DNA of 20,099 bases from a bacterium (GTDB taxonomy: Bacteria > Babelota > Babeliae > Babelales > JAUWHS01). Shown here piece by piece: positions 1,436 to 20,078 of the stretch. The position numbers and the translations under genes are program-made. Location of the stretch: contig JBDRFY010000011.1 in NCBI GenBank assembly GCA_043818275.1, positions 1 to 20,099 of the forward strand, read 5' to 3'. Position 1 is the stretch's first letter. Every line of letters begins with the position of its first letter. The notes below the pieces were generated by a model that saw only the letters and a program-made list of their open reading frames with translations, was not told the origin of the DNA and did not search any database.

Positions 1436-2636
1436 AATGTCCCCGTTCTTTTTTTAAATCTAATTCTGGCTTTTGCATGATTTTATAAATTTTTTCTGAT
1501 AACTTCTCAGGGGTTAGTTTATACATACAATTATCTTTATCACCAGCTTTTTGAGATTTTTCTCCATGAGTCTTTTGATAATGGTGAGGACAATCAATTT
1601 GAATAGCGTTTTTAATATTTTCTTTTTTTAAAAATGGACCATGGCGTAAAGCTAAGGTTGGTCCAAAAATAGCAATTGTTTCCGTTCCAAGGTAATCACC
1701 AAGATGTAATATTCCTGTATCTGGAGCGACTAAAAGATTTGTTTTTGTGATTAAATAAGCTGTGGTTAATAAATCCCATTTTGGAACAAAGACAACATTC
1801 AAATTTTTTTCTTTTATGTATTCAGATAAAATTAATGCTTGTTCTCCAAAATATTGTCCAAGAAGCGCAGCGGTTGTATTTTGAATTTTATTCTCCTTTA
1901 GGGAGTCCTTCGAAGCTTTTTCTCTTTCGCTAAAGCTACAAAGAATATTCTCCGTAGTTTTAACGGAGGAGGAAGCGAAGTAGGATTTATCTAAAATATT
2001 TAGTAAATTTTGCCAATTTGATGTTGGCCAGTGTTTGGAGGGCCAGGTGGTGCTTGGGGCTAAAAGTAAGAGTTTATTAATTTTATTTTCAGCCAACCAT
2101 TTATCAACTTCGTCCTTTTTGTGTTTTGGGTAATTTAAATAAAAATTATTTTGCAAGCTATTTATAGCGGGACTTGATTTGTAGGTTGAATTTATTTTTA
2201 GCAACGCATGAGAAACAAGAGCCATGTTTTTTTGAATAATATTTGTATATTTTGGAGTTATTTGTTTGTGCGTAAAAAAGGTTGTGATACCCGCACGCGC
2301 GTTATTTTTATCAAAACCTATTTTTAAGCCTTTTAAAAAAGATAAAATTACAGAAGTTTTTAAAATTCCCTGAAAATCCAGAATTACATCCCAATTTGTT
2401 TTTCTGATTTCTTTGACAATTTTTGTTGTTTCGGCCCAATTTTTTCTTTTTAAAAATTTATCTGGCAAAACCCAGACATTTTCAAGAAATGATTGCTCAA
2501 ATAAAAGGTGAGCTGCTTTTTTTTGTACCACCCAGCTGATTTTGGCATCCGGAATTATTTTTTTTATTAAAAAAATAGCAGGAAAAGTATGAATTACATC
2601 ACCAATTGCAGAAACTCTCAAAATTAAAATTTTCAT
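1416..2636 (-). CDS. Glycosyltransferase family 9 (LPS heptosyltransferase WaaC/WaaF-like) carrying an in-frame palindromic insertion
   Basis: Motifs MKILILRVSAIGDVIHTFP, DVILDFQG, WPSKHWP, DTGILHL and AIFGPT. Overlaps the TolC start by 20 nt. Confidence 0.92.
   Translation of the reverse strand: MKILILRVSAIGDVIHTFPAIFLIKKIIPDAKISWVVQKKAAHLLFEQSFLENVWVLPDKFLKRKNWAETTKIVKEIRKTNWDVILDFQGILKTSVILSFLKGLKIGFDKNNARAGITTFFTHKQITPKYTNIIQKNMALVSHALLKINSTYKSSPAINSLQNNFYLNYPKHKKDEVDKWLAENKINKLLLLAPSTTWPSKHWPTSNWQNLLNILDKSYFASSSVKTTENILCSFSEREKASKDSLKENKIQNTTAALLGQYFGEQALILSEYIKEKNLNVVFVPKWDLLTTAYLITKTNLLVAPDTGILHLGDYLGTETIAIFGPTLALRHGPFLKKENIKNAIQIDCPHHYQKTHGEKSQKAGDKDNCMYKLTPEKLSEKIYKIMQKPELDLKKERGHYEEATF
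1904..1987. repeat. Nested palindromic (REP/REPIN-like) element inside the GT9 CDS
   Basis: Outer arms TCCTTCGAAG (1906-1915) and CGAAGTAGGA (1976-1985) enclose two inverted 26-nt units (1920-1945 and 1948-1973; 19/26 match, all differences transitions). TCGCTAAAGCTA (1927-1938) is the exact reverse complement of 8293-8304. Confidence 0.8.
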
Positions 2637-2790
2637 TATGACTCCGCATGCTTTTTTGTTTTATTACATGTTTTAATGAAAAATTATTTTAACTTAAATT
2701 TGATAAAAGTAGAATTTTTCCTTATTAAAATTTATCATCTATAGTGTCTTGTTTGTGTAATATTATAAAATTTTAATTTGTTGTGGGATT

Positions 2791-5580
2791 ATGGTTATGG
2801 CATATATGCAAAATTTACTAAATTACAAAATATTTATTTTCCTGATATTTTTAAGCGCAGTTATTTTATTTTTTTATTTTGGTGTAAACAAGAAAAAATT
2901 AGAAAAAATTAAAAATTTTTATAGGGCAAAAATGACAAAATTTGAAATTCCTAAAAACAATATCGTAAAGGTAAAACTTGATAATGGTATGAATATTTTG
3001 ATTTTTAAAAATGATTCGGTACCAAAAGTTTTAGTTCAAATTGCTTATGATATTGGATCATATGTTGAGCAGGAAGGGGAGCGGGGACTTGCTCATTTAA
3101 TTGAACATATGATTTTTAAGGGAACGGATGAATTATCTGAAACTGATATTGATACAATCGCGAAAAAATATGGCGCGACTCTTAACGCGTATACTTCCAA
3201 AGACATAACGAGTTATTTTTTTGAAGCAGATAAAAACAACTGGAAACCGTTTATTGGAATTCTTGCCGATTGTATGCAAAATGCTCGGTTTGACGAGCAA
3301 CACCTTGCTTCAGAGCTTAAAACTGTAATTCAGGAATTAAGAATGTACAAAGATTATTACTGGCGAAATATGCTGGAGAAAGCAAGTGAAATTATTTTTC
3401 CGACAAATCATCCGTACCATCGTCCTGTAATTGGGTATAAAGAAGATTTAATGCAATTATCTGCGCAAAATTTAAAAAAATTTTATAAAGAACATTATTC
3501 TCCAGATCATGCGACTTTATTTATTGTTGGGGATATTGATATTGATGAGGTGATAAGTTTTGCGAAAGAAAAATTTGGAAATATTAAAGGAACAGACAAT
3601 CGCATTGATTATCCGGAAAAATATTTTTTCCCAATTCAAAATGATTTATCAGCTAATAAAACAGTAATTTATGAAGATATTCAAAATGAACAATTAGGAT
3701 TTTATTGGCTGATTCCGGGATTAAAAGAAAAAACAGAAGTTATAGCAGATGTTGTAGAATTTGTTTTGGGTGAAGGGCAGGGAAGCAGGCTTCATAAAAG
3801 ATTAGTTGATGAAGAAAAGGTGGCGACAGGCATTGGAGTTATGGCTCATCAGATGATGGAATCAGGAGAATTTTTAATTTTTGTTGAGCCGATACCTGGA
3901 AAAAGTGAAGATTGCAGAAAAATAATACAGGAAGAAATAGCAAAATTAATTAATGATGGAATAAGCGAGAAAGAATTACAAAAAATTGTAAAAACAAAAA
4001 GAAGAGCTTTTTTTCAGGAATTACAAAGTTTGAGTGGTTTTACAAATGAATGGATTCAGTCTTATTTAGCACATAAAAATGAATTCGCATTGTTTGAAAA
4101 AATAAATGAATTTAATAATGTTGATTCAGATAATGTTCAGGAATTTGCCACTTTATATCTGGATCCATTTTTGATGAATCAGATTGAAATTTTGCCGATT
4201 CCAGAAAGCAAAAGAAAATTATGGGAAGAAAATAAAAAGAAATCAGACGAATTAGATCAAAAAATTTTATCTCAATATATTCGGACAACAAAACTTGAGG
4301 AACCCAGATTTGAAAAAACTTTACCAAAACCAAATAAACTGGAATTTAATTTTCCTAAACCAACTCAAACTTTTACTCTTAATAATGGTCTTGATGTTAT
4401 AGTTCACAAGGATAGTTTTTGGCCTATTTTTTCATTTAATTTACAATTCAAAGAAGCAGAATTTTTATCTGAGTCAAAAGATGGCATTCTCCTCAGCTTG
4501 TTAATGGCAATGCTTACAGAAGGAAGCATAGATTTACCAAAAGAAGAATTAATAGATTTTTTTGAAACAAGGGGTGCGAGTGTTTCTCTTGATGAATCAG
4601 GAGTTGGTCTTTCTGGTTTAAGTGAGGATATGTCTGATTTAGTTTCAAAACTATTTTATGTAATGACAAATCCGGATTTTAGTGAAAATTCTTTGGATAA
4701 ATTAAAAATCGTTTTTATTGATTCTTTTAATCGGGCAAAAGATTCTTCCAAGGCTGTTGCCTTGAATTTGTTAAAAAATGAAATTTATCGTGGATTGTCT
4801 TATGACTGGACTTTTGATCAAGCAATTGAAATTTTAAGCAAGGCTACGATTAAGGATTTGCAAAATTTGCACAAAAAATTATTGTCTCCCGAAAACATGA
4901 TTTTATCTGTTGCGGGTGAATTTGAAGATGAAAAAGTTAAAGTTTTAATTGAAAAAACTTTTACATCCTGGTCAGGTGAAAAATTTGAAACTGAAAAATG
5001 GCACAAATCAGAATTTCGGCCAAATGATAAAATAGATCATTCTATGCTTAGGGATCAGGTAGTTTTATATTTTGGAAAACCAAGCAGTCTGACTATTTAC
5101 GATGATGATTTAATTCCTGTAAAAATTTTAAATTTGATTAGTTTTTCATCACTTGGATCACGTTTATTAAAATTAAGAGAGCAAACAGGGATCTTTTATA
5201 CCGCCACAGGAACGTTTGCTGCCAACGCGACAAGATTTCCGGGCTATGACTTTGTTGGTACTGTTTTAAGCGTGGATAAGCTTGATGAAGCTGAAAAATT
5301 GATAAAAAAACTGGTAGATGAGATTGGTAAAAATGGTATAAAACAAAGTGAAATTGATGCGGCAAAACAGCAATATTTAAAAACATTAATTGATTTAACC
5401 GCGAGCAATGAGGCTATTGCCATGATGCTTGCCAGATTGAAATCCTTTGAGCTTGGTTTTGATTATTATGATAAGGTATTAAATCGAATTCAGAGAATGG
5501 GTATCGAAGAATTAAATGAAATTGCATCAAAATATTTTAATTCAAAAGATTTTGCCAGAGTTCGTGTTGGCAGAATTTAG
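2791..5580 (+). CDS. M16 (insulinase/PqqL-like) zinc metallopeptidase with fused N- and C-halves and an N-terminal membrane anchor
   Basis: HxxEH motif in GLAHLIEHMIFKGT, plus LNAYTS, HPYHRPVIG, SRLHKRLV and SRLLKLREQTG. The second half lacks HxxEH. Start may be at 2791, 2797 or 2806. Confidence 0.92.
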   Translation: MVMAYMQNLLNYKIFIFLIFLSAVILFFYFGVNKKKLEKIKNFYRAKMTKFEIPKNNIVKVKLDNGMNILIFKNDSVPKVLVQIAYDIGSYVEQEGERGLAHLIEHMIFKGTDELSETDIDTIAKKYGATLNAYTSKDITSYFFEADKNNWKPFIGILADCMQNARFDEQHLASELKTVIQELRMYKDYYWRNMLEKASEIIFPTNHPYHRPVIGYKEDLMQLSAQNLKKFYKEHYSPDHATLFIVGDIDIDEVISFAKEKFGNIKGTDNRIDYPEKYFFPIQNDLSANKTVIYEDIQNEQLGFYWLIPGLKEKTEVIADVVEFVLGEGQGSRLHKRLVDEEKVATGIGVMAHQMMESGEFLIFVEPIPGKSEDCRKIIQEEIAKLINDGISEKELQKIVKTKRRAFFQELQSLSGFTNEWIQSYLAHKNEFALFEKINEFNNVDSDNVQEFATLYLDPFLMNQIEILPIPESKRKLWEENKKKSDELDQKILSQYIRTTKLEEPRFEKTLPKPNKLEFNFPKPTQTFTLNNGLDVIVHKDSFWPIFSFNLQFKEAEFLSESKDGILLSLLMAMLTEGSIDLPKEELIDFFETRGASVSLDESGVGLSGLSEDMSDLVSKLFYVMTNPDFSENSLDKLKIVFIDSFNRAKDSSKAVALNLLKNEIYRGLSYDWTFDQAIEILSKATIKDLQNLHKKLLSPENMILSVAGEFEDEKVKVLIEKTFTSWSGEKFETEKWHKSEFRPNDKIDHSMLRDQVVLYFGKPSSLTIYDDDLIPVKILNLISFSSLGSRLLKLREQTGIFYTATGTFAANATRFPGYDFVGTVLSVDKLDEAEKLIKKLVDEIGKNGIKQSEIDAAKQQYLKTLIDLTASNEAIAMMLARLKSFELGFDYYDKVLNRIQRMGIEELNEIASKYFNSKDFARVRVGRI

Positions 5581-5828
5581 TTTTTAAATTTGTTATAAAT
5601 TTTTAGAATTATTGCTGTTATTGGATTGCAACTTAAAACTCTCAGTGTAATTAATGGAATTGCCAAATAAAATGGTTTTTGTTGAAATGTTATTTTGGCA
5701 TATTCAGAACATCGGACATGATAAATACAAACACCGACATTTCTCATGCCTAAAGATAAACGAATTGATGTGTATACAGCTTCAATAAAAGAAAAAATAA
5801 TTGGTTTAATTTGTTTAATTTTATTCAA
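5577..5828 (-). CDS. yidD: Membrane protein insertion efficiency factor YidD
   Basis: Three-Cys pattern CIYHVRCSEYA...LRVLSCNP. Lies directly downstream of rnpA. Confidence 0.82.
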   Translation of the reverse strand: MNKIKQIKPIIFSFIEAVYTSIRLSLGMRNVGVCIYHVRCSEYAKITFQQKPFYLAIPLITLRVLSCNPITAIILKIYNKFKN

Positions 5829-6195
5829 AACTTTCTACCAAAAATTGTTTTAACTGATCAAAAGTTAAGTTTAAAGCTTGTTTATATGTGATTAAAATTG
5901 AAATGAATGGTTTTGCGTATAATTTTTGTTCATAAAATATATTTTTGATTCTTCGGCGAAGCTGATTTCTTTCATGCGCTTTGCCAACTTTGCCTGAAAT
6001 TATGATTAAAATTTTTCCGGTATTTTCTTTAATTTGATTTTCAAACGTTTTAGCAAATTCTTCAATTTTTAATTTTTTAATTTCTTCGATTGGAAATTGC
6101 AATAATTTTAGACCGTTTGTTTGGTTTTTAAGCTTGGCTAGCTTGAAAGCTAAGCTAATTTCTTTTTGACTGAACCTAAATAAATCTTTAAACAT
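5821..6195 (-). CDS. rnpA: Ribonuclease P protein component
   Basis: RNR-type motif ISGKVGKAHERNQLRRRIK. Lies downstream of rpmH. Confidence 0.93.
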   Translation of the reverse strand: MFKDLFRFSQKEISLAFKLAKLKNQTNGLKLLQFPIEEIKKLKIEEFAKTFENQIKENTGKILIIISGKVGKAHERNQLRRRIKNIFYEQKLYAKPFISILITYKQALNLTFDQLKQFLVESFE

Positions 6196-6225
6196 AAATT
6201 TTCATTCTGAAACATTATTTACTTA

Positions 6226-6252
6226 GAAAAATAGGGCTGAAATTTCAGCCCT
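6226..6252 (-). terminator. Rho-independent terminator-like hairpin between rpmH and rnpA
   Basis: Perfect 20-nt palindrome AGGGCTGAAATTTCAGCCCT (6233-6252) followed on the minus strand by ATTTTTC. Confidence 0.7.
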
Positions 6253-6258
6253 TAAAAT

Positions 6259-6417
6259 TTACTTGGTACCGCGAAATTCATCGCTAACCGATAGTTTCTT
6301 GCGGCCTTTGGCTCTTCTTCGGTTAAGAATTTTGCGGCCATCTTTACTTTTCATTCTTTTTCTGAAGCCGTGTTTTCTTTTTCTTTTAATATTGCTTGGT
6401 TTATAAGTTTCTGACAT
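6259..6417 (-). CDS. rpmH: 50S ribosomal protein L34 (52 aa, absent from ORF track)
   Basis: Manual translation gives [52 protein letters not shown], with the L34 signature HGFRxRM...RRRAKGR. Confidence 0.97.
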
Positions 6418-6467
6418 TGTGCTTCCTATATCGTTAATTTTATCTTTAATATTTCCAGGAAGCTCTT

Positions 6468-6496
6468 ATTTTAATGGATAAATTGTAATCGTGCAA
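6468..6496 (-). promoter_or_regulatory. Sigma70-type promoter for rpmH-rnpA-yidD
   Basis: On the minus strand, TTGCAC (6496-6491), a 17-nt spacer and TAAAAT (6473-6468). Confidence 0.65.
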
Positions 6497-6513
6497 CAAT
6501 AAAAAGACAGCTT

Positions 6514-7890
6514 TTATTTTGTTAGGGTATAAATTATATAATTTAGGGTTTTTTCGCGACAGGCAATTTGATTTAAAGTATTCATATTGATAGGCATATT
6601 CGTTTTATCCAGTTGTTCATATGGCGATTTGAAATGAATAAATTCTCTTAAGCGATTGTGGCTTAACAAATGTAAATAATTTTGAATATCATTTTCATCA
6701 GCCATAATATTTTCAGCGTATGTGATTTGATCTATTAAAATTTCTTCTTTTAGCTGTTGTTCTGCAAGAAGGGCAACCTGTCTGTAGAATTCTTTCTGTG
6801 TTCTGTAAACCTGAAAATCCGGTTTTTTCATCAAATTTAGCAAGATATCTTCTTGTCTTCTTATTGAAATATGGGCTGGAATTTCAAATCTGTGTTTGGA
6901 TAAAAGAAGGTGAAAAAGTTCTTCTATTATTGAGTATCTTTGCGAAAGATCATCTTTAAAAGAAAAAGCTTCTATTAATTTTTTGTGAACATCCTGTTTG
7001 CTTTTTAATTTGAAGGCGGCTTTAAAAAGATCAATAGAGAATGATCCGCCTTTTGTTATCTCTCTTATTTTTATTAAAAAGCGAAAACTATTACTTTCTC
7101 CGTCCAGCAAAGAATCTTCTTCGATTGGCATATTTGTTGTAATGAATGTGTCGTCAATGTTTTTTCCGATGAGTGTTTTTTGAAAAGAGCAAGTTAAGTT
7201 TTTTGAATTTATTTTTATGCAGAAGCTGTTTTTTTTATTTTCCCAGATTTGTTTATTATTTTTGTCCAATAAAGTAGCATCAAAAATTACCCAGTCATAT
7301 TCTTCGATGGAAAGTGTTTTTTGTTTTTTATTTATCATTGATTCTTGTTTGATAAAATTTTCTACCTGTTTATCCAGATCTTTATATTTTTTTCTTTTGG
7401 GTGGTCTGAATATAAAATGTTTCCATTCTTTTAGTGAAACGGTTTCTGCGACAGAAAGATCGAAAATGAATTTTAAATTAAAATCGTTATCTTTAATTAT
7501 TCTTATTAATCTTGGGTAGTTTGCTATAGAAATTTTTAATTCTTTTATTTTATAAATTAAAAAATCAAATACGAAATATTTAAATATGAAGATTTTTATT
7601 TTTTCAAAAACCTCGTTTTGATGCTTAATTTCTATGTATTCCGCAGGCGTTTTGTTTTTTTCAAATTCTAAAATTGTTGAATTTTCCCTATATAATTCAA
7701 TTGTTTGATTATAAATATTTTTTACCGTTTCTGGGCCGACATTTATTGTTATTTGCATTAAATGTGAAGATAAATTTTTAACAGTAAAAGTTAAGTCGGA
7801 AAAAATAGAACTTATTGGTTTTTTAGGGATTTTTTTAATATATGAATTTTTTATATCTTGGGATTCGGTTTCGGTTAATGCATCAATCAT
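6514..7890 (-). CDS. tig: Divergent trigger factor-like protein
   Basis: 458 aa. Segments recall the TF N-domain (QITINVGPETV...EFEKNKTP), FKBP-like region (EEYDWVIFDATL, LIGKNIDD) and C-domain (FEIPAH, LIDQITYAENI). Lies downstream of tRNA-Leu, as tig does in several bacterial groups. Confidence 0.7.
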   Translation of the reverse strand: MIDALTETESQDIKNSYIKKIPKKPISSIFSDLTFTVKNLSSHLMQITINVGPETVKNIYNQTIELYRENSTILEFEKNKTPAEYIEIKHQNEVFEKIKIFIFKYFVFDFLIYKIKELKISIANYPRLIRIIKDNDFNLKFIFDLSVAETVSLKEWKHFIFRPPKRKKYKDLDKQVENFIKQESMINKKQKTLSIEEYDWVIFDATLLDKNNKQIWENKKNSFCIKINSKNLTCSFQKTLIGKNIDDTFITTNMPIEEDSLLDGESNSFRFLIKIREITKGGSFSIDLFKAAFKLKSKQDVHKKLIEAFSFKDDLSQRYSIIEELFHLLLSKHRFEIPAHISIRRQEDILLNLMKKPDFQVYRTQKEFYRQVALLAEQQLKEEILIDQITYAENIMADENDIQNYLHLLSHNRLREFIHFKSPYEQLDKTNMPINMNTLNQIACREKTLNYIIYTLTK

Positions 7891-8028
7891 AAATTTTCTC
7901 CTTTTTCAGATAATTTATTTTTTTAAATTATATAAGAAGTTACAAAATATTAATAATTTAGATTTATCTGATTGATAGACCTGAAAAAACAATGTTTTTG
8001 AAAAAATAAAATTTTTATTTAAGAATCA

Positions 8029-8115
8029 TGGTGCAAGGAGGGGGAGTCGAACCCCCACGCCCTTTCGGGAACTGGCTCCTAAGGCCAGCGCGTCTACCAG
8101 TTCCGCCATCCTTGC
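8029..8115 (-). tRNA. tRNA-Leu (anticodon TAG)
   Basis: 87 nt, GCAAGGA...TCCTTGC-A-CCA. Anticodon arm CTGGC-CTTAGGA-GCCAG, long variable arm and GTTCGA T-loop. Confidence 0.97.
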
Positions 8116-8135
8116 ATGGCTAAAATTTTAAAAAT

Positions 8136-8311
8136 GGCCAGAATCCTTTGACTTCGCTTCCTGCTTTGCATGACATGCAGGATTATTGGGCGAAATCTGG
8201 CCTGCCAGCCGCCCTTCGATGCGCTACGCTTACTCAGGATGAGCGGGTATGAAAAAATGTTGAAACTTCGAAGAAAGGCGACTTGTCCGCCATAGCTTTA
8301 GCGACGGCGGA
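8136..8311. repeat. Mosaic of palindromic elements in the tRNA-Lys/tRNA-Leu spacer
   Basis: GGCCAGA/TCTGGCC-closed multi-stem (8136-8202); CCTTCGA...CTCAGGATGAGCGG unit (8209-8246); ACTTCGAAGAA (8265-8275, identical to 19040-19050); TCCGCC-ATAG-CTTTAG-CGAC-GGCGGA (8286-8311). Confidence 0.8.
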
Positions 8312-8315
8312 AGGG

Positions 8316-8391
8316 TGGTGGGTCGCCGGGGAATCGAACCCCGAACCTGCAGATTAAGAGTCTGTTGCTCTACCAATTGAGCTAGCAACCC
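8316..8391 (-). tRNA. tRNA-Lys (anticodon CTT)
   Basis: 76 nt, GGGTTGC...GCGACCC-A-CCA. Anticodon loop CTCTTAA, D arm GCTC/GAGC and T arm CGGGG-TTCGATT-CCCCG. Confidence 0.97.
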
Positions 8392-8468
8392 AATATTTCA
8401 AAAATTTATTTTAGAATGAAATTAAGTATAAACAAAATTTATATAAATTGAATAATTTTTATGATTGT

Positions 8469-9578
8469 TTAAATGCTAAAGCTTCTGCTTTTTTCTATAA
8501 ATATAAATTTTTTCCAGGGATAAAAACCTAATGTTTCTGATATTTTATTGTTGAAAGATGTTTCAGTTTCTTTTAAAGCTTCATCTTTTTCTTTTTCTAT
8601 ATATTCCAATTTGTTAAAGGCAAATGTTTTGTAACGCTCATCTGTAAGATATTGTTCATAGAAATCTTTTTGGATTCCGTTAAATTCGAGAAAATCTTTA
8701 TATTTTTGGGTTGCATTTAGTGTTTTTTTAATTATCAAATTTAATTCTTCTTTATCATCGCCTACAAGATTGACAAAATTTTTTGATGCTTTATCAGGAA
8801 TTACAAATTTCAAAATATCTTCTTTTTGTTGTTTGCTTTTTGTAAATTCCACCGTATAAGGTTCTGAATATATGAGTTCATTAAAATTGATTTCAAATGG
8901 AAATATTTGGCTAAAATCGTTATTTAAAAAAACAAATAAAGCAATGTTGCTTTCAAATGGTTCGACTACTTCAAATTTGCTGTTTAGTGACACAAGTTGT
9001 TCTTCTGGGGCGCGATCCTTTTTTTGTTTAAAATAAATATTCAATTTTAATTTTGTAAAAATGTTTGCTGATTGTTCGGAAAATTTAAAGAACAATGGTG
9101 TTTTGGGAAATTTCATTTGTATTAATGAGATTTCAGGCGTTTGTATTTTATTTAAATTTATTGAGCGAACGTAAGTTTCTTTACGTAGTAGTGGTTTTAG
9201 TTCAAACTCTTCAATTTCTTCTTCAACTCCAAACATTGACAGCTTTTTTTCTAATGAAAAAACTCCATTTAAAGAGTTTCTTTGTTGTTTTTCTAGTTGA
9301 TAAAAAACATTGGTTCCATCTTTTTTTGTTTGTATAAAAAAATCATTTGTTTTTTTTGTTATTTTTAAAGCATTTCTAAATTCTTTTGCTGTTTCTATTT
9401 CCTCTATTGATCTTTTGCTTGAGCGGCCGAGCATTTTTTTTGCTTTTTGAGAGCTGGGACCTGTTTCTGGAATTGCTAATGTTAGATACTTACCTGTATT
9501 GTTTATAATTGTTATTTCTGTTTTTATTGTAAAAAAAAATGGAAAAAATAAGAAAATGGTTATTACAAATTGTTTCAT
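8469..9578 (-). CDS. Hypothetical secreted protein
   Basis: 369-aa ORF with a signal-peptide-like N-terminus and AGGAG upstream. No family recognised. Confidence 0.75.
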   Translation of the reverse strand: MKQFVITIFLFFPFFFTIKTEITIINNTGKYLTLAIPETGPSSQKAKKMLGRSSKRSIEEIETAKEFRNALKITKKTNDFFIQTKKDGTNVFYQLEKQQRNSLNGVFSLEKKLSMFGVEEEIEEFELKPLLRKETYVRSINLNKIQTPEISLIQMKFPKTPLFFKFSEQSANIFTKLKLNIYFKQKKDRAPEEQLVSLNSKFEVVEPFESNIALFVFLNNDFSQIFPFEINFNELIYSEPYTVEFTKSKQQKEDILKFVIPDKASKNFVNLVGDDKEELNLIIKKTLNATQKYKDFLEFNGIQKDFYEQYLTDERYKTFAFNKLEYIEKEKDEALKETETSFNNKISETLGFYPWKKFIFIEKSRSFSI

Positions 9579-9732
9579 CTGATACTCCTGGATTTTGAGA
9601 AAGGATAATTAATCTGATATTTTAAATAACCTAAATTTTTACGAAACAAAAAACAATGTTTTAATGACAAACATATTTTGACTCGATAAAATATGAAATT
9701 GTTAAATTCTTTTTCAGTATTAAGGAGATATA

Positions 9733-10008
9733 ATGTTGCTAGATCCTAAAGCCTTTGGAAAGGCATCCGGTATTTTTGCCGTGATTGGTGTTTATATTAA
9801 CATTATTGTTACAAAATTGCCTACAACATTAGCGGATTTAAAAACTTGTCCTGCTATAGTGGTTTTTTTTATTATTTCATTTGGATTTTTTGTGTTTGGA
9901 TTATTTTCTTATTTAGTTAGTTTTTTCTCTACTTGGTTATTTGCAACATTATACAATCGATTTGCCAAACAAAATCTTGAAAAATCTGAAAAAGAAAAAG
10001 ACTTATAG
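9733..10008 (+). CDS. Small hypothetical membrane protein
   Basis: AAGGAG RBS, 91 aa with hydrophobic segments, ending 2 nt before ruvB. Confidence 0.75.
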   Translation: MLLDPKAFGKASGIFAVIGVYINIIVTKLPTTLADLKTCPAIVVFFIISFGFFVFGLFSYLVSFFSTWLFATLYNRFAKQNLEKSEKEKDL

Positions 10009-10010
10009 AA

Positions 10011-11045: not shown

Positions 11046-11094
11046 TTTTTTTCATGTTAAGTCAAAATAGTGTATAAATTGCTTAGGAGTGTTA

Positions 11095-11814: not shown

Positions 11815-11828
11815 TTTGGGAGATATAA

Positions 11829-12719
11829 GTGTTTTTGAGTATGACTGGTTTTGGAAATGCAAGAGAAACTCTTTTAATTGATAAAAAGAAAAAAATTGGT
11901 TTTTCCGTAGAAGTTAAATCTTTGAATTCACGATTTTTTGAAGCTGTTTGTAAATTGCCGGGGCCACTTAGTTCCCTGGAAATAAAAATTATAGAATTAT
12001 TAAAAGGAAAATTGGTTCGGGGCCGGATTTATTTAACCTTACGGGCAAGTGAAGATTCTTATTTATTTCAAACTGTTAAACCAAATCTTTCTTTGGTTGG
12101 TGATTATCTTTCTGCAGCCAGAAAAATAAAAAAAGAATTTAGTCTGGAATCAGATTTATGCATAGCTGAATTGTTAAAACTTCCGGATGTTTTTATTTCT
12201 GAAGAAAAGGATATTAGTGGAGCAGTTGAAAAAGATATTTTAGCCTTAATTGAAAAAGCTGCTGATTTACTTACAAAATCCCGGGCGGTTGAAGGAAATA
12301 ACCTTAAAAAAGATTTGGAAATGTTTTTTGATGTTTGCTTTGAAAAAATGATAAAAATTAAGCAACTTTTTATTCAGTTGATGAAAAGTAAAAAAGATGC
12401 CATTAAAAAATTGCTTTCCCAACAAAATAATGGCGATGAATCTTCAAAGTTAAAACTGGATGAGCTTTATTCTGTTGTTAATAAAATTGATATTAATGAA
12501 GAAATAACCCGTTTTGACAGTCACCTTAAGGTAATAAAAACAGTATTAAAAGATAAAAGTTCTTCAAAGGGCAAAAGATTAGATTTTATTTTGCAGGAAT
12601 TAGTGCGAGAGCTAAATACGATTAATGCAAAAAGTGGAAGTTTTGATATAAGTTCTTTGGCTGTTGATATAAAAGTTGAACTTGAGAAAGCTAGGGAGCA
12701 GGTTCAAAATATAGTTTAA
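11829..12719 (+). CDS. yicC: YicC/YloC family endoribonuclease
   Basis: SMTGFG, EVKSLNSRF, GKRLDFILQE and REQVQNI motifs. GTG start preceded by GGAG. Confidence 0.95.
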   Translation: MFLSMTGFGNARETLLIDKKKKIGFSVEVKSLNSRFFEAVCKLPGPLSSLEIKIIELLKGKLVRGRIYLTLRASEDSYLFQTVKPNLSLVGDYLSAARKIKKEFSLESDLCIAELLKLPDVFISEEKDISGAVEKDILALIEKAADLLTKSRAVEGNNLKKDLEMFFDVCFEKMIKIKQLFIQLMKSKKDAIKKLLSQQNNGDESSKLKLDELYSVVNKIDINEEITRFDSHLKVIKTVLKDKSSSKGKRLDFILQELVRELNTINAKSGSFDISSLAVDIKVELEKAREQVQNIV

Positions 12720-12725
12720 ATTTAA

Positions 12726-12765
12726 AAAATACTCCGTCCCGCCAGTTGGCGGGACGGAGTATTTT
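12726..12765. terminator. Perfect 19-bp inverted repeat, a likely bidirectional terminator between convergent yicC and the GT4 gene
   Basis: AAAATACTCCGTCCCGCCA-GT-TGGCGGGACGGAGTATTTT, with T tracts following on both strands. Confidence 0.85.
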
Positions 12766-13975
12766 ACTTTAAAATTTCTTTATAAAATTGTTCTAACTTT
12801 TGCATCACTGGATCAGATGTTAAGTTTTCCTTAACAAAATTGTAAGCGTTTAAACCATATTCTTTCTGGAGTTTTGGGTTGGTGATAAGTTTTTCTATCT
12901 GATTTACAAGATCATCCACATTTCCATTTTCAAATAACAGGCCAGTTTTTTCATGCTTGATAACATTTTCCATTCCTGTTCCACTTGTTCCAATTAACGG
13001 TTTTTTTAGTAGTGCGGCTTCCATTAATACAATTCCAAATGCTTCATCTTTTGTTGTAAGAGCTTTTATATCTGAATGATACATAACTTCTATTCTTTTA
13101 TATGTAAACCCAAGAAAATGAATATAATCTTCTATTTTAAGTTGTCTGGCTAATGTTTTTAAATATTTTTTTCTGTAACCTTCACCGCATAGTAATAAAT
13201 TTACCGGTTTGTTTTTTTCATGGATGAATTTTTTTAAAGCATGAAACATTAATTGTTGATTTTTATATCCACGAAGACATGCGACCATAACAATTGTTGG
13301 ATAATTGGGAAGAGTGATACCAAATTCTTTTTTGAAGAATTCATTCTTATTCGCGCAAGGTGTAAATTTTAATGATTCTTCCTCGTCAAAAAATGGTGGC
13401 AGATGATACATTTTGGGAGGTGTTATTTTTTCCTTAAAACATTTATTTTCTATACTTGAAATGCAATTTTGATCTACGCAAAAAAGAGTTTTAAATTTTT
13501 CAAGGTATTTTGTTTTTAGCGGGGACGGTGAATGTCTGGTTAATATAATTTTAACAGGCAGATCAATTGTTTTTTTGAAAAGATTTATCTCTTTGTGTCT
13601 ATTGCAAAGGATGATATCGATGCTATTGTCTTTGACTATTTTTCTTATAATTTTACTTAATCCTGGTTGTATGTGGGGTCTGAAAATTTTTGATTGTTCA
13701 AATGAATAAAAAGATATTTTTTGTTCAATTAATTTTTTTTCAATATCTGAATTTTTGGGAACCAGTATATGAACATTATAAGAATGTCTGAGGTGTGCTT
13801 TGTAAATCGCTAAACTATGCATTAAAAGTCCATCAAATTTATATGGGGTACAAATAATTAAAATATTTGGTTTGGAAGGATTAATTTTTTTGTCTGATGG
13901 AAATGATGTATGCTCACTTTTGTAAAATGAAAAAGGGATAGAAAGTTTTTTAGTTGTTGGGATTTTTTGATTCAT
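12764..13975 (-). CDS. Glycosyltransferase family 4 (GT-B)
   Basis: EAFGIVLMEAA (E-x7-E), IHFLGF and EKTGLLF motifs. The ATG at 13975 with AAGGA upstream is preferred over the track start at 14095. Confidence 0.9.
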   Translation of the reverse strand: MNQKIPTTKKLSIPFSFYKSEHTSFPSDKKINPSKPNILIICTPYKFDGLLMHSLAIYKAHLRHSYNVHILVPKNSDIEKKLIEQKISFYSFEQSKIFRPHIQPGLSKIIRKIVKDNSIDIILCNRHKEINLFKKTIDLPVKIILTRHSPSPLKTKYLEKFKTLFCVDQNCISSIENKCFKEKITPPKMYHLPPFFDEEESLKFTPCANKNEFFKKEFGITLPNYPTIVMVACLRGYKNQQLMFHALKKFIHEKNKPVNLLLCGEGYRKKYLKTLARQLKIEDYIHFLGFTYKRIEVMYHSDIKALTTKDEAFGIVLMEAALLKKPLIGTSGTGMENVIKHEKTGLLFENGNVDDLVNQIEKLITNPKLQKEYGLNAYNFVKENLTSDPVMQKLEQFYKEILK

Positions 13976-14134
13976 TCTGATCCTTAAATAGTTTATTGGA
14001 TTTTTCAAGATTACCTTATTAATCGCATAAAACTTGTTTTCCTTTGTCAGGCATAGTATCATATAATCTTGCGTAAGCAAATAAATTCTTATCATTAAAT
14101 CTGGTTAAAATTTTTAATTTTTGAAGGGTTAAAT

Positions 14135-16633
14135 ATGTCTAACAATAATGATAAACAGGAAACCAAAAATACAAAAAGTATTGTGCCTCTTTCAATTGAA
14201 AAAGAACTGAAAACCTCTTTTTTGGATTATGCGATGTCTGTTATTGTTAGTCGTGCGCTTCCTGATGTCAGGGATGGTTTAAAACCGGTTCATCGCAGAA
14301 TTTTATACGCAATGCATAAACTTGGTTATTATCATGAAAAATCGTACAGAAAATCGGCGACTGTTGTAGGTGAAGTTATGGGAAATTATCATCCCCATGG
14401 TGATGCGGCTATTTATCAGTCTATTGTCGGTCTTGTTCAGGATTTTTCAAAACGTTATCCATTACTTGATGGTCAGGGAAACTGGGGTTCTATCGATGGA
14501 GATAATGCAGCTGCCATGAGGTATAGTGAAGTTCGCATGGCTAAAATTGCAAGAGATTTATTAACTGATATTGATAAAGATACTGTTCATTTTGTTCCAA
14601 ATTTTGATGAATCAAAAACAGAGCCAACGGTATTGCCAAGCAAAGTTCCTAATTTATTAATTAATGGTTCAACCGGTATTGCTGTTGGTATGGCAACATC
14701 AGTTCCGCCGCATAATTTGGGTGAAGTTGTTGATGCAAGTATTACATTATTAAAAAATCCTGAATTAACAGAAGATGAATTATTTAAAATTATTCCGGCC
14801 CCGGATTTTCCAACTGGTGGTATTATTTGTGGACGATCCGGAGTGTTGAAAGCTTATCGGACCGGACACGGACAGGTTATTGTTCGTGGTGTTATTGATG
14901 TTGAGGAAAATAAAAAAGGTTCAGCTTTGGTTATTAAGGAAATTCCTTATCAGGTAAATAAGGCTGATCTTGTTACAAGAATTGCGGATCTGGTCAAAGA
15001 TAAAATTATCGACAGTATTTCAAATATCAGGGATGAATCAGACAGGCGTGGTATACGGGTTGTAATTGAACTAAAAAAAGGCGAAAATCCACAAGTGTTG
15101 CTTAATCAGCTTTATAAACATACAACTCTTCAATCTTCTATTTCTATTATTATGTTAGCGCTTCTTAATAACAGACCTATGATGTTTACATTGCGTGAAA
15201 TGATTGAGCAATTTTTAATTCACAGAAAAGAAATTGTAACTAAACGAACAGAATTTGAATTAGCCAGAGACAAAGCAAGGGCGCATATTTTAGAAGGTTT
15301 GATAATTGCTCTGGATAATATTGATGCCGTTGTTGAATTAATTAAAAAATCTAAAAGCGCGCAGGATGCAATATTTGTTTTGAATAAAAAATTTGCATTA
15401 ACTGAAGCGCAAGGTAAAGCAATCTTGGAAATGAGGTTGCAACGTTTGACCGGTTTGGAACAGGATAAAATTCATGAAGAAACAAAGGAACTGGAAAAAA
15501 CAATTAAGCAATTAGAATTAATTTTGGCTGAGCCGGAAGAATTGAAAAGAATAATAATTGAAGAACTTGAAGAGATCCGGAAAAATTATGCTGATGCAAG
15601 AAAAACTAAAATAGAAAATGTTTTTGAGGGAGATTTAACTGAGGCTGATTTAATTCCAAATGATGAAGTAGTTGTTACCTTAACAAAAAAGGGTTATGTA
15701 AAACGGGTTCCTATCGAAACATATTCAGTTCAGCGTCGTGGCGGAAAAGGTAAAAAAGGTATGACTGCTTTGGAAGAAGCCGATGATATTATTCAGGATT
15801 TATTTGTTCCCAGAAATCATGATGATTTATTTTTCTTTACGAATAAGGGCCGTATTTTTAGTTTAAAAGTTTATCAAATACCAGAAGCTTCCCGTCTTGC
15901 AAAAGGAAGGGCAATTGTAAATTTATTGCAGCTTCCCGAGGGTGAAACAGTTGTTAAACTTCTTTTTATGTCCCCAGACGAAATCGAAGGTAAATTTGTT
16001 GTTATGGTAACGAAGAAAGGTTCTATTAAAAAAACTGATGCAATGGCATTTGCAAAAGTAAGAAGTACTGGAATCAGGGCATTAAATTTACATGACGACG
16101 ATGAACTTGTTTTTTGTGATGTAAGTTCCGGAAGTGATTCAATTGTTGTAGCTACAGCTAAAGGTTATGGAATTCGTTTTGAAGAAAAAGAGGTTCGTTG
16201 CATGGGTCGACAAGCTGCTGGTGTAAGAGCAATAAAATTAAGAAAAGCTGATTATGTTGTTGGACTTGAAATTATCGATGATGAAAGAGATCTTCTTTTT
16301 GCGACATCAAGAGGATATGGAAAACGTGTTCGAATTCAGGATTTTAGAGTTGCGCATCGTGGTGGAATGGGTGTCAGAACAATACCAACAGATTTTAGAA
16401 ACGGTGATGTTATTGGTTTGACAAAGGTTACAGATGAGTCGCATCTTCTTTTGATTGACACTAACGGAAAAATAATTAGACTATCTTCGCAGGAAATCAG
16501 AACCATGGGAAGACAAGCAAAAGGTGTAAGACTTGTCAGGCTTGATTCAAATCAGGAGTTATCGTCTGTGGTTGCTTTTGAAGGAAACGGCGAAGAGGAT
16601 GTTAGTGAAGAAGTTAATGAAATTCAAGAATAA
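14135..16633 (+). CDS. gyrA: DNA gyrase subunit A
   Basis: RALPDVRDGLKP, YHPHGD, catalytic AAMRY, GyrA-box QRRGGKG and C-terminal pinwheel repeats. Confidence 0.98.
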   Translation: MSNNNDKQETKNTKSIVPLSIEKELKTSFLDYAMSVIVSRALPDVRDGLKPVHRRILYAMHKLGYYHEKSYRKSATVVGEVMGNYHPHGDAAIYQSIVGLVQDFSKRYPLLDGQGNWGSIDGDNAAAMRYSEVRMAKIARDLLTDIDKDTVHFVPNFDESKTEPTVLPSKVPNLLINGSTGIAVGMATSVPPHNLGEVVDASITLLKNPELTEDELFKIIPAPDFPTGGIICGRSGVLKAYRTGHGQVIVRGVIDVEENKKGSALVIKEIPYQVNKADLVTRIADLVKDKIIDSISNIRDESDRRGIRVVIELKKGENPQVLLNQLYKHTTLQSSISIIMLALLNNRPMMFTLREMIEQFLIHRKEIVTKRTEFELARDKARAHILEGLIIALDNIDAVVELIKKSKSAQDAIFVLNKKFALTEAQGKAILEMRLQRLTGLEQDKIHEETKELEKTIKQLELILAEPEELKRIIIEELEEIRKNYADARKTKIENVFEGDLTEADLIPNDEVVVTLTKKGYVKRVPIETYSVQRRGGKGKKGMTALEEADDIIQDLFVPRNHDDLFFFTNKGRIFSLKVYQIPEASRLAKGRAIVNLLQLPEGETVVKLLFMSPDEIEGKFVVMVTKKGSIKKTDAMAFAKVRSTGIRALNLHDDDELVFCDVSSGSDSIVVATAKGYGIRFEEKEVRCMGRQAAGVRAIKLRKADYVVGLEIIDDERDLLFATSRGYGKRVRIQDFRVAHRGGMGVRTIPTDFRNGDVIGLTKVTDESHLLLIDTNGKIIRLSSQEIRTMGRQAKGVRLVRLDSNQELSSVVAFEGNGEEDVSEEVNEIQE

Positions 16634-16654
16634 TTAAAATTGAAACTTAGGAAT

Positions 16655-16690
16655 GTCAGGCAACTAAATTTTAGTTGCCTGACTTTTTTT
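16655..16690 (+). terminator. Rho-independent terminator after gyrA
   Basis: GTCAGGCAACTAAA-T-TTTAGTTGCCTGAC followed by TTTTTTT. Confidence 0.85.
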
Positions 16691-16692
16691 AC

Positions 16693-17880
16693 ATGAATGA
16701 AAATACAAAAATATTACTTCATTTATCTTTAATTTATGGAATTGGGCCGAGTGCCGCATTAAAAATTATTAAAAAATTATTTGATGATTTTTATTTCAAT
16801 TCAAAAAATGCTCAAATCAGAAATTTACAAATTAATTTGCAGGATATTTATTTATTTAGAGAATATGATTTTATTCATCGTTTTGGGCTATCAGGTAATA
16901 TTTCAAAAATTGTTTATGATGGTTTGCGAGATCGATCACTTTTAGATAAAGAATTGAGTCTTATTGATAAGCATAAAATAAAAATAGTTTCTTTTTTAGA
17001 TACAGATTATCCGGAAAATTTAAAAGAAATTTATTTGCCTCCGATTATTCTTTATTGTAAAGGTGCAGATTTTTTAAATTATCCAAAAAGATTGGCTGTT
17101 GTTGGCGCAAGGAAAGCGAATAATTATGCAAAACAGGTACTCGATTGTTTTGTGCCTGAATTAGTTGTAAATGGTTGGCAAATTATTAGTGGCGGTGCTA
17201 TTGGTGCTGATAGTTTAGCGCATGAAGCAACTTTAAAATCAAAAGGTAAAACGATTGCTGTTTTGGGATCAGGTTTGTTGAATTTATATCCTGCGCAGAA
17301 TAAAAATTTATTTGACAGAATAATTGAAAATAATGGAACTTTAATTTCACCTTTTCCATTGCAAACTGCACCAGACAGAGGAAATTTTCCTGCAAGAAAC
17401 AGAATTATTTCAGGTATTAGTCAGGGGTGCATGGTTGTTCAGGCTGCGATTAAAAGCGGGGCATTAATAACTGCGCATTTTGCCCTGGAGCAGGGTAGAC
17501 AAGTTTTTGCTGTTCCTGGTCCGATTGATGATGAGTTAAGTTTGGGTTGTCATGAAATTATTAAACATGGCGCAAAAGTTGTTAGTTGTGTATCCGATAT
17601 TTTAGAAGAATTTGATTCCTGTGTGCATTTTACTTCAATACCATGCGATTTAGTGATAGAAGAAAAAATTGATAATCAGGATATAAGTAAAGTTGAAGCT
17701 CAACTTGAGATAGGAGATGAACAATATTATATTTTACGACATTTGAATAATCCGGTTACAATTGATGAGCTTAGCACAAAAACTGGTTTGAGTTTGTCGG
17801 AATTGCAGGAAAAATTATTTGATTTACAACTTGAGAATAAGATAAAACAAAATTTTGCAGGAAGCTGGCAAAGGATTTGA
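16693..17880 (+). CDS. dprA: DNA-processing protein DprA/Smf
   Basis: AVVGAR, IISGGAIGAD, FPARNRIISG, SGALITA and FAVPG motifs plus a C-terminal winged-helix-like segment. The ATG at 16693 is preferred to the TTG inside the terminator. Confidence 0.96.
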   Translation: MNENTKILLHLSLIYGIGPSAALKIIKKLFDDFYFNSKNAQIRNLQINLQDIYLFREYDFIHRFGLSGNISKIVYDGLRDRSLLDKELSLIDKHKIKIVSFLDTDYPENLKEIYLPPIILYCKGADFLNYPKRLAVVGARKANNYAKQVLDCFVPELVVNGWQIISGGAIGADSLAHEATLKSKGKTIAVLGSGLLNLYPAQNKNLFDRIIENNGTLISPFPLQTAPDRGNFPARNRIISGISQGCMVVQAAIKSGALITAHFALEQGRQVFAVPGPIDDELSLGCHEIIKHGAKVVSCVSDILEEFDSCVHFTSIPCDLVIEEKIDNQDISKVEAQLEIGDEQYYILRHLNNPVTIDELSTKTGLSLSELQEKLFDLQLENKIKQNFAGSWQRI

Positions 17881-17881
17881 T

Positions 17882-18544
17882 ATGTCAAAAGATATTTTAT
17901 ATTTAGGTTCTCAATCAAAACCAAGACAAAAATTATTAGATTTTGCACAAATAACTTATAAAATTTTACAGCATAAAAGTGAAGAAAATGTTTCTCATGA
18001 TGGTCTTCCTTTTGAAGATTATGTTTTAAAAATAGCTCAAGATAAAATGAAAAATTTATCCTTCGACGTTGCTCCCCGCTTCGTACCGCCACATGGCGGC
18101 ACTTCTCAGGACAGGCATGATGATTGGATAATTTTTGTTTTAACTTCTGATACTGTTGCAAGAATGATTGAAAGTAAAATGATTTTAAAAAAGCCACTGG
18201 ATCTGGATGATGCCAAAAGATTGTTAATTGAAATTGGCAGTGGCCCGGCAGAAGTTTTTACTGCCTGTTGCCTGGATAAGAAACGTTTTGAAAATAATAA
18301 ATGGGAAACAATCGAAAAAAATCATTTTGTTGTAAGAACAGAAGTTGAATTTTGCATTCAACCGGATGAGATTGACTGGTATTTAAAAAATATGCCGCAG
18401 GCGATCAACGCTTGCGGCGCTACAATCATCGAAGATTTTGGGTTCAATTTTTTAAAATCTGTTAATGGTTCATACACATCAGTTTTAGGTCTCCCTCTTT
18501 ATGAAGTCAGACAAGCGTTAAGGAAAATGGATTTTAGATTTTAA
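17882..18544 (+). CDS. maf: Maf family nucleoside triphosphate pyrophosphatase carrying an in-frame palindromic insertion
   Basis: LYLGSQSKPRQKLL, TSDT, ILKKP and GSYTSVLGLPL motifs. The ATG at 17882 has AAGGA upstream and lies 1 nt after the dprA stop. Confidence 0.92.
   Translation: MSKDILYLGSQSKPRQKLLDFAQITYKILQHKSEENVSHDGLPFEDYVLKIAQDKMKNLSFDVAPRFVPPHGGTSQDRHDDWIIFVLTSDTVARMIESKMILKKPLDLDDAKRLLIEIGSGPAEVFTACCLDKKRFENNKWETIEKNHFVVRTEVEFCIQPDEIDWYLKNMPQAINACGATIIEDFGFNFLKSVNGSYTSVLGLPLYEVRQALRKMDFRF
18058..18117. repeat. GC-rich nested palindromic element inside maf
   Basis: 37 of 60 bases are G+C. ATCCTTCGAC...CTCAGGACAGG encloses CTTCG-TACCGCCA-CA-TGGCGGCA-CTTC. 18058-18085 matches 8143-8170 at 21/28. 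Confidence 0.8.
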
Positions 18545-18990
18545 TTCATTGGTTCATTTAGTTTTGGTTGCCAATTTTCAAGTAATTTTTTAAATAAAAT
18601 TCTTTTAGCTTCATTACTTGTTGTTAATTTCTTTTTTTTCATTGTTGATTTGGCTTGCTGCAAACTTAGCCAAATGGTCTTAGAATCTAATTTTTGCAAA
18701 TCCAGATGTTCAACCGTAGGAATTAATTTTGCCTTTGAATCCTGATCTAAGTTGCTTTTCTCAAGCAATTCAAAAAGGATATCTTCCAATGTGAATAAAA
18801 AATCTAAAATTACATTTGGTAAAATTTCAGCAATTTCCAGATATTTATTTTCATCAATTGTTTGTAATTCTTGAACAAATCCATTTTTTAATGCAAAATC
18901 AATGATTTTTTCAAATTCTTTGTCCCCCTTTTTTAATAACCAATCCATTAATACTATCAATTCTAATGAAAGAGATAGATTAGATTCCAT
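18541..18990 (-). CDS. Hypothetical protein
   Basis: 149-aa ORF with AAGGGGA upstream of the ATG. No family recognised. Confidence 0.75.
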   Translation of the reverse strand: MESNLSLSLELIVLMDWLLKKGDKEFEKIIDFALKNGFVQELQTIDENKYLEIAEILPNVILDFLFTLEDILFELLEKSNLDQDSKAKLIPTVEHLDLQKLDSKTIWLSLQQAKSTMKKKKLTTSNEAKRILFKKLLENWQPKLNEPMN

Positions 18991-19013
18991 TTGCGTCCCC
19001 TTTAAAAGTTTTA

Positions 19014-19050
19014 TTTTACTTCGTACTGCTATTCGCGGTACTTCGAAGAA
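19014..19050. repeat. Intergenic palindromic element
   Basis: TTTTACTTCG-TACTGC-TATTC-GCGGTA-CTTCGAAGAA. The outer arms match those of the GT9 element (reverse complement; 8/10 and 9/10) and the inner stem matches the maf element. Confidence 0.72.
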
Positions 19051-19829: not shown

Positions 19830-20014
19830 TTTATTTCCTTCAATTTTTTTGAATCAGATAAATTTTAAAATCATTGTTAAAATAATAATTCTTTTGTTAT
19901 TGAGTCAATTGTTTTAAATAATCAAGTTTTTGAATTTGTGTTTATGGATAGCCGAATCAGGAAATTAAAAATGAATCTTTGACTTTGTTTATCAACTTGA
20001 TGATGAATTTGACA

Positions 20015-20078
20015 AGCCCATAAAATGGGCGGCTTTTATTAGCCCAGGGTAAGAAAATTTCATTTTCGCAACCCTGGG
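20015..20078. repeat. Double-hairpin REP-like element
   Basis: GCCCAT-AAA-ATGGGC (20016-20030), then CCCAGGGT...ACCCTGGG (20043-20078) with an inner GAAAAT-TTC-ATTTTC stem. Confidence 0.65.

Follow-up and report, generated by a model that had tools for sequence, protein, structure and literature searches.

Among the closest known systems to the palindromes analysed here are the NTS/SRM hairpins of the Ssn nucleases (cd10448; Chenal et al. 2025, PMC11893778). SsnA binds NTS in single-stranded DNA and nicks it; that report shows only cleavage and an effect on transformation, and raises mobility of the cassette as a hypothesis. The present palindromes lie in a 20,099-nt stretch (the window; contig JBDRFY010000011.1, here C11) of a 1.33-Mb, 31% GC Babelota assembly (GCA_043818275.1) and fall into two repeat families, A and B. 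Among named organisms, the nearest matches to the genes of the assembly are Dependentiae/TM6/Babeliales entries, in line with this lineage. The repeats resemble Ssn/SRM in that single-domain GIY-YIG genes of fewer than 100 aa are tied to short, oriented, dispersed hairpins, and in that A lies on both sides of its gene (46 of 80 loci), like NTS-ssnA-NTS. They differ in that the SRM pattern has 0 matches in the present genome, the proteins are nearest to Slx1 and UPF0213 entries, and B lies upstream of its gene (70 of 109 loci against 7 downstream), with the CCA end of a tRNA as its anchor. Here the repeats also commonly nest and enter genes in frame, whereas NTS are rarely found in genes (2%, PMC11893778).

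The GTAG REP/REPIN-RAYT systems (PMC3733652) share with A and B short hairpins, an unpaired end tag, inverted dimers, intragenic copies and a repeat-flanked partner gene. Here, however, the partner is GIY-YIG rather than HUH Y1, Y1 genes show no association, and the terminal GTAG tag is absent. Because both the SRM motif test and the RAYT test failed, A and B were filed in neither family. Like Rickettsia palindromic elements (RPE; PMC10969869 and PMC3733652), A and B are palindromes that have entered unrelated housekeeping genes in frame, in a small genome rich in AT; the orthologues here are empty. Compared by description, RPE-1 is about 150 bp long, whereas A and B are 25-42-bp units that build longer composites by nesting. 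The CGTC-tagged repeats, which include RPEs, have no dedicated transposase according to PMC3733652, unlike A and B, each of which has a linked nuclease gene. A or B may match a repeat family of that paper, for example in Opitutus terrae. A full-text search, with most subscription journals outside its scope, found no paper on A or B repeat/nuclease pairs, although the supplements of PMC11893778 or the figures of PMC3733652 could list A or B.

The two families bear on the origin and spread of short palindromes that have no transposase, and on their in-frame presence in essential genes. By analogy with Ssn, we consider it probable that A and B are each spread by their own tiny single-domain GIY-YIG nuclease.

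Two families of hairpin repeats

A sequence-only reading had flagged palindromes at five loci of the window, hosted by a family 9 glycosyltransferase gene, the tRNA-Leu/tRNA-Lys interval, a gap between converging genes, a Maf gene and an intergenic gap. These palindromes are copies of two separate short mobile hairpin repeat families. The earlier reading had taken them for one; they are indeed non-autonomous hairpin repeats, but the two families have different partner genes, and inner hairpins are exchanged in addition.

Family A consists of CCTTCGA, a short loop or inner hairpin, and CT^CAGG-RYGADCG, with a core of 24-25 bp. A structure-based genome scan found 109 matches (105 non-overlapping), against 0, 0 and 1 in three shuffles, and adjacent copies no more than 200 nt apart were inverted in 23 of 23 pairs. 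Family B, 30 bp in its basic form, has a variable 6-bp stem, a 3x3 internal loop and an exchangeable inner hairpin closed by G-C; the other 3-nt side of the loop follows, then the strand that completes the stem, and lastly a tail of CANG. The internal loop carries TTC or TAC on one strand (46 and 16 of 77 copies, respectively) and GAA or GTA on the other. The corresponding scan found 77 copies, against 0, 2 and 0 in three shuffles; it was used in place of a looser hairpin scan (179 matches against 50-61 in shuffles) that was too noisy. Copies of both families without a gene are dispersed in the genome, and many B copies are mosaics with mismatched arms or stand in tandem arrays.

The left stems of the 77 B copies are of 28 different kinds. 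Among 176 distinct units from this genome and other phyla, stem positions 3-5 were paired in 440 of 528 cells, compared with 199 in permutations; the scan requires at least 4 of 6 stem pairs, so that this excess stems partly from selection, which does not explain the variety of pair types. B is asymmetric, with its tail on one side, and does not show the terminal inverted repeats with target-site duplication of miniature inverted-repeat elements derived from insertion sequences. The tag at its end reads CANG, or CNTG on the opposite strand, and the GTAG/GAAG words lie inside the element. As to the strand of folding, wobble-compatible mismatches (20 against 9, summed by hand) lean to the GAA strand, and ViennaRNA folds gave no consistent preference. 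The loop corners covary (11/17 against 11/159), which would suit sheared G-A pairs and can also be read as G-T on the other strand. PMC13037366 describes sheared G-A pairs for mini-hairpins rather than for a B-type loop.

Whole-genome word counts against an order-4/5 Markov expectation, a check proposed with the sequence-only reading, gave a divided result. Strong excess was found for TAGCTTTAGCGA (11 against 0.07-0.09 expected), CCTTCGAC (90 against 9-21) and CCCTTCGA (89 against 11-20), but not for CTTCGAAGAA (8 against 6-8), CTTCGAAGGA (2 against 2-3.5) or CTCAGGA (175 against 115-182); CTTCGAAGRA, like CTCAGGA, was not enriched genome-wide.

Each family is linked to its own GIY-YIG clade

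Apart from uvrC, the genome contains six GIY-YIG genes, all small; its Y1 genes that look intact number five. The small GIY-YIG proteins are single-domain, 80-97 aa long and above the cut-off for PF01541; an NCBIfam scan assigned them to no family, and none of the six appeared Ssn-like by eye. Four genes of 80 aa lie 3' of tRNA genes, three of them with a clear B just upstream, in the order tRNA-CCA, B, spacer, inverted B and GIY-YIG gene. Two genes of 91-97 aa are flanked by inverted A pairs. Representatives are the 80-aa gene at C50:67836-68078 and the 91-aa gene at C75:30799-31074. In fold and structure searches the 80-aa clade was nearest to Slx1 and the 91-97-aa clade to UPF0213, and the predicted structure of the 80-aa protein (mean predicted local distance difference test score, pLDDT, 96.5) likewise has Slx1 as its nearest fold. 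The two clades may be subfamilies other than cd10448 (cd10449-like and cd10456-like). The Tyr, Gly, Arg, His and Glu columns of the GIY-YIG motif were invariant or nearly so in 56 sequences. Fold and catalytic motif are shared with Slx1 and UPF0213/YhbQ-type proteins (PDB 7CQ2, 7WME, 1ZG2, 1YWL), the 80-aa protein differing from Slx1 in being the bare nuclease domain. The PDB descriptions mention no repeat link for such proteins, and a literature search found no paper on one.

The linkage extends well beyond this genome. Among 109 Slx1-like loci (29 from the same phylum and 80 from Alphaproteobacteria, Verrucomicrobia, Patescibacteria and others, with at least one locus in both sets), B lay within 300 nt upstream of the gene in 70 and downstream in 7, and a tRNA end within 500 nt upstream in 75. 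The far flanks of these loci held 16 B in 233 kb, and control loci 1 in 118 kb. Among 80 UPF0213-like loci, all from metagenomes, A was present within 300 nt in 67 and on both sides, mostly inverted, in 46; no tRNA was found near any of the 80. Cross-pairing was limited to 2-4%, with B near 3 of 80 UPF0213-like genes and A near 2 of 109 Slx1-like genes.

Consistent specificity was seen across 150 genomes of the phylum. At least three B were found in 73 of 94 genomes with an Slx1-like gene and in 12 of 56 without (odds ratio 12.7), and at least three A in 38 of 51 genomes with a UPF0213-like gene and in 17 of 99 without (odds ratio 14.1). The cross odds ratios were 3.2 and 2.0, and the A and B associations persisted when stratified on the other gene. 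In a relative of the same genus (G001, 90% complete) there were 0 A matches, against 89 here.

Two individual loci may be mentioned. In G001 (C19:27397-27597), a truncated UPF0213-like gene stands without A, preceded by a stretch resembling a tRNA 3' fragment. In Marinibaculum pumilum, a cultured strain, the B pair upstream of the GIY-YIG gene is tandemly duplicated behind tRNA-Met.

Copies in the window and their nesting

The features of the window that belong to this analysis are as follows.

1416-2636, minus strand: family 9 glycosyltransferase gene (heptosyltransferase-like), host gene, open frame of 406 aa (protein-family match and open reading frame, ORF)
1896-1988, minus strand: in-frame 31-codon insert in the glycosyltransferase, a composite of three B modules (alignment to homologues)
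1902-1985, minus strand: outer B of the composite, with 6-bp stem, TTC/TTC loops and variant tail (sequence)
1924-1943, plus strand: inverted B core in the composite, holding the TAGCTTTAGCGA 12-mer (sequence)
1944-1973, minus strand: inner B with 8-nt inner hairpin and variant tail, nested in the outer B (sequence)
8144-8189, plus strand: decayed A with a partly deleted B (8159-8177) at CT^CAGG (parsed against intact A+B copies)
8201-8318, minus strand: outer B that begins in the CCA of tRNA-Lys and ends in TGG-CAGG, then a second CCA (sequence and scan)
8212-8247, plus strand: intact A in the 3' loop of the outer B, in opposite orientation (parse suggested by similar B copies with long inner parts)
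8282-8311, minus strand: complete 30-bp B that entered the outer B in its 5' loop, behind a CT, holding TAGCTTTAGCGA (B scan)
8316-8391, minus strand: tRNA-Lys(CTT), anchor of the B stack (tRNA/Rfam match)
12729-12762, no strand: hairpin of 15 perfectly paired bp in the gap where a yicC-like and a glycosyltransferase gene converge (fold about -19 kcal/mol)
17882-18544, plus strand: Maf-family pyrophosphatase gene, host gene, open frame of 220 aa (protein-family match and ORF)
18059-18127, plus strand: in-frame A copy in Maf, residues 60-82 (alignment to 24 relatives)
18074-18115, plus strand: 42-bp B with 20-nt inner hairpin at the CT^CA site of the Maf A (sequence and coordinates)
19014-19050, plus strand: decayed, tail-less intergenic B with its inner hairpin inverted (sequence)

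The shared modules on which the sequence-only reading was built were all recovered. The outer arms of the glycosyltransferase insert (1904-1985, minus strand) recur at 19014-19050, a common layout at 18079-18105 and 19019-19044, and TAGCTTTAGCGA exactly at 8293 and inverted at 1927. The segment 18058-18085, at the Maf element, matches 8143-8170, at the decayed A near tRNA-Lys, in 21 of 28 positions, 6 of the 7 differences being C/T (by eye on both strings). CCGCCA-NN-TGGCGG is present at 12739 and 18086, the former in a doubtful member: the 12729-12762 hairpin has no internal loops, its core resembles one B inner hairpin, and it is likely a two-way terminator. The genome holds 11 loose CCGCC..GGCGG cores, of which 8 are, by eye, inner hairpins of B.

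Nesting had also been predicted, as insertion into the apex of existing copies. B does occur within A and within B, but apex insertion is not the main rule, since B enters A at a constant position of the 3' arm, CT^CAGG next to the loop, enters B at the internal loop and tRNA genes at CCA. In this genome 49 A copies are simple and empty and 17 are filled by B, all at the single CT^CAGG site; for the RAYT-type repeats the numbers are 16 and 2. CT stood directly 5' of 24 of 67 distinct B sites, compared with 4.4% in the genome, and C directly 3' of 47; these sites are not independent, many of them being copies of A. The rule holds outside the present genome, as an A flanking a metagenomic UPF0213-like gene (L229) carries B at CT^CAGG.

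B starts exactly at the CCA of 27 of 44 tRNA genes, with a full stem in 24. On the 3' side of such a B there is often another hexamer that opens with CCA; the two hexamers covary (85 of 159 positions against 52 expected, in 53 distinct units, kin included). At the orthologous tRNA-Lys site G001 has a different B, and four other relatives (G024, G015, G040 and G027) have none.

In-frame copies in genes

Of 206 merged loci, 48 lie inside ORFs of at least 150 aa (39 ORFs). About three of the 48 are likely false positives (C78:42162, C50:65298 and C56:24367), and a few ORFs from the simple caller may be miscalled. Element density is 4.6 per 100 kb in long ORFs against 55 elsewhere, 12 times lower.

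The 31-codon composite of the glycosyltransferase is absent from 9 of 9 aligned homologues, including that of G001, and has eight further matches in the genome at 92-98% identity. In Maf, A with its nested B makes up 23 codons. None of the 24 aligned relatives has the element, and all 24 show a loop there of about 10-14 residues; the element therefore replaced host sequence, most of the native loop. Structure prediction (alignment of 23 of the 24 relatives, one with ambiguous bases being excluded) places the insert in a low-confidence coil (pLDDT 57-61 against a mean of 88) that would lie three strands of sequence ahead of the intact, invariant Asp90.

Six further genes with internal copies were compared with five relatives. 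The inserts in LeuRS (+17 aa), MnmE (+19 aa) and the first site of GlmS (+10 aa) are empty in 5 of 5. The DnaK insert (+10 aa), exactly one 30-bp B, is empty in 4 of 4, the G001 sequence ending before the site, and codon alignment shows a clean 30-bp gain without duplication. Two sites in UvrC are without insert in 2 aligned orthologues; the second of these sites has a 30-bp B in place of about 21 bp. Sites empty in relatives thus exist in the glycosyltransferase, Maf, LeuRS, GlmS, DnaK, UvrC and MnmE genes, as the sequence-only reading had anticipated, and together with copy numbers far above chance they speak against both chance words and conserved ancestral sequence. Its further suggestion, that the elements add peptide to housekeeping enzymes, is borne out by the in-frame inserts but needs amendment for the Maf, UvrC and GlmS copies, which replace host codons rather than only adding to them. 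The copies found inside genes probably survived selection because they lie in tolerant loops, rather than being adaptive additions. Among the sequencing runs listed as containing this DNA none was an RNA run. No strain-level bridging of an insertion site was found among the contigs listed from four low-share DNA runs, which were short pieces.

Proposed mechanism and alternatives

If A and B are spread as Ssn hairpins might be, each nuclease would bind its cognate hairpin in single-stranded DNA and make a nick close to it. Another copy would then be the source from which repair or strand invasion pastes in the hairpin; the target would not be duplicated, and a few host bases would often be lost. 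The preferred targets of B would be hairpins already in place (A, B, RAYT-type repeats and tRNA acceptor ends), at their base or arm, and nesting would follow from this preference. Nick-and-repair fits better than cut-and-paste with terminal repeats because gains are clean and without duplication, host bases are replaced and arms are mosaic. More speculatively, the sites of B (tRNA acceptor ends, arms and loops of other hairpins) would agree with cleavage guided by structure, as the Slx1-like fold suggests.

Several points weigh against spread by the nucleases. Linkage of gene and repeat does not by itself prove mobilisation. A bare nuclease domain is not known to have joining activity, so that host repair must be assumed, and as B is not downstream of its partner gene, movement of the gene itself is left unexplained. 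No B was found at 39 of 109 Slx1-like loci and no A at 13 of 80 UPF0213-like loci. In incomplete assemblies, the partner gene was not found in 12 genomes with at least three B and 17 with at least three A; in one genome (G156) there were 25 B and no partner gene was found. Kinship among the genomes and among the loci means that the odds ratios are overstated. MutL and the second GlmS site, which fall in stretches of variable length among relatives, are ambiguous, and the excess of lengths divisible by three in genes is weak (14/16 against 37/61, p=0.07).

The main rival to a mobilising nuclease is one that only recognises hairpins and trims incoming or looped single-stranded DNA, while processes of the host (recombination, gene conversion between copies or slippage in replication) multiply the repeats, and the genes ride along. 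SsnA restricts transforming DNA, transposition not being shown for it (PMC11893778), and the mosaic B copies with mismatched arms, the tandem arrays and the in-gene replacements with short junction similarity, as in UvrC, all speak for this explanation. It accounts poorly for copies at unrelated sites without prior homology (DnaK, LeuRS and MnmE), for the fixed ends of B and its fixed site in A, and for copy number that tracks the cognate gene, and we regard it as unlikely, if a serious competitor. B could also act chiefly at the RNA level for the host, as a 3' trailer of tRNAs that hides CCA or terminates transcription and is kept and copied by selection. Such a role would explain why B starts at CCA in 27 of 44 tRNA genes and why its 3' arm can pair with the second, covarying CCA-led segment (85/159 against 52 expected), often before a T run; yet orthologous tRNA-Lys genes lack B in 4 of 5 relatives, a B match is absent from 37 of 151 genomes, most copies lie away from tRNAs, and both ORF strands carry copies. 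As the main explanation this is very improbable, and a secondary RNA role would not exclude spread by the nuclease.

Spread by a RAYT/IS200-type HUH Y1 transposase, as for REP/REPINs, was the link drawn in the sequence-only reading, which proposed a search for Y1/RAYT or other small nuclease genes flanked by the repeats. The genes found beside A and B are the small GIY-YIG ones and not Y1. REP cleavage occurs at CT, and B inserts after CT; GTAG/GAAG words occur on one B strand, the 23 adjacent A pairs within 200 nt are all inverted, and five intact-looking Y1 genes are present. Y1 presence, however, is unrelated to B (27/47 genomes against 58/103) and to A (17/47 against 38/103), and Y1 was not found in 38 of 54 B-rich and 30 of 42 A-rich genomes. 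Among 34 Y1 loci (mostly best Pfam hits, many of them plain IS200) none had A and two had a loose B-like match, and the Y1 genes here are flanked by other repeats, B having entered the flank of one (C59). The two GIY-YIG clades do co-occur with the repeats, and a Y1 driver is largely refuted, with very little probability remaining to it. Least probable of all is insertion of B into A and other hairpins by an IS110-family recombinase with a CT core. CT stands 5' of many B sites and the genome has one IS110 gene, but IS110 was found in only 13 of 150 genomes and 7 of 54 with at least ten B, several genomes assembled as a single contig have expanded B and no IS110, and as B does not end in CT, no duplication of the core is seen.

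Here one genome holds two coexisting repeat/nuclease pairs with clean cross-specificity, exact ends, a defined target site and empty orthologues, which makes the question of spread testable with oligonucleotides and two proteins of fewer than 100 residues. They would add two clades of candidate sequence- or structure-specific single-stranded DNA nucleases. For annotation, it should be noted that where proteins of this lineage have short GC-rich peptide loops, these derive from repeats. A wider proposal is tentative, and we would not yet favour it: at least three clades of GIY-YIG proteins that consist of the bare domain (Ssn, UPF0213-like and Slx1-like) might form a class that mobilises 25-40-bp DNA hairpins, the Slx1-like one cutting at stem-loop bases, so that a 30-bp element homes to tRNA CCA ends and other repeats and gives nested composites that move as units, and peptide loops in core enzymes. 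If true, the proposal would supply the driver that is missing for palindromic repeats outside the RAYT group and for RPE-like insertions in coding sequence.

Other repeats and genes

Four of the Y1 genes (152-162 aa; C59:329-814, C60:13439-13897, C76:3807-4268 and C36:2772-3260 of the present genome, G000) are flanked by palindromic repeats with core CCACGGGTTAAAACCCG, the top 14-mer having 34 copies; these form a separate REP/RAYT-like system, which B has entered twice. A further repeat family, with core GTCATCCTGAAC..TTCAGGATC and 13-17 copies, resembles Ssn-type repeats, and does not match the SRM pattern.

Within the window, an Rfam scan reached threshold for two tRNAs only, and a general repeat finder returned AT-rich noise and nothing else. 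Three ORFs (8469-9578, 9733-10008 and 18541-18990; 369, 91 and 149 aa) have no Pfam match, and a divergent trigger-factor-like ORF (6514-7890) has a weak one, N-terminal only. Inverted repeats at 16645-16690, 3' of gyrA, and 20005-20050, near the window end, are terminator-like and by eye unrelated to A or B. Elsewhere in the genome, two consecutive ORFs (C19:12335-13912 and C19:14021-14956) resemble, by eye, the halves of an alanine-tRNA ligase, with an in-frame repeat in each.

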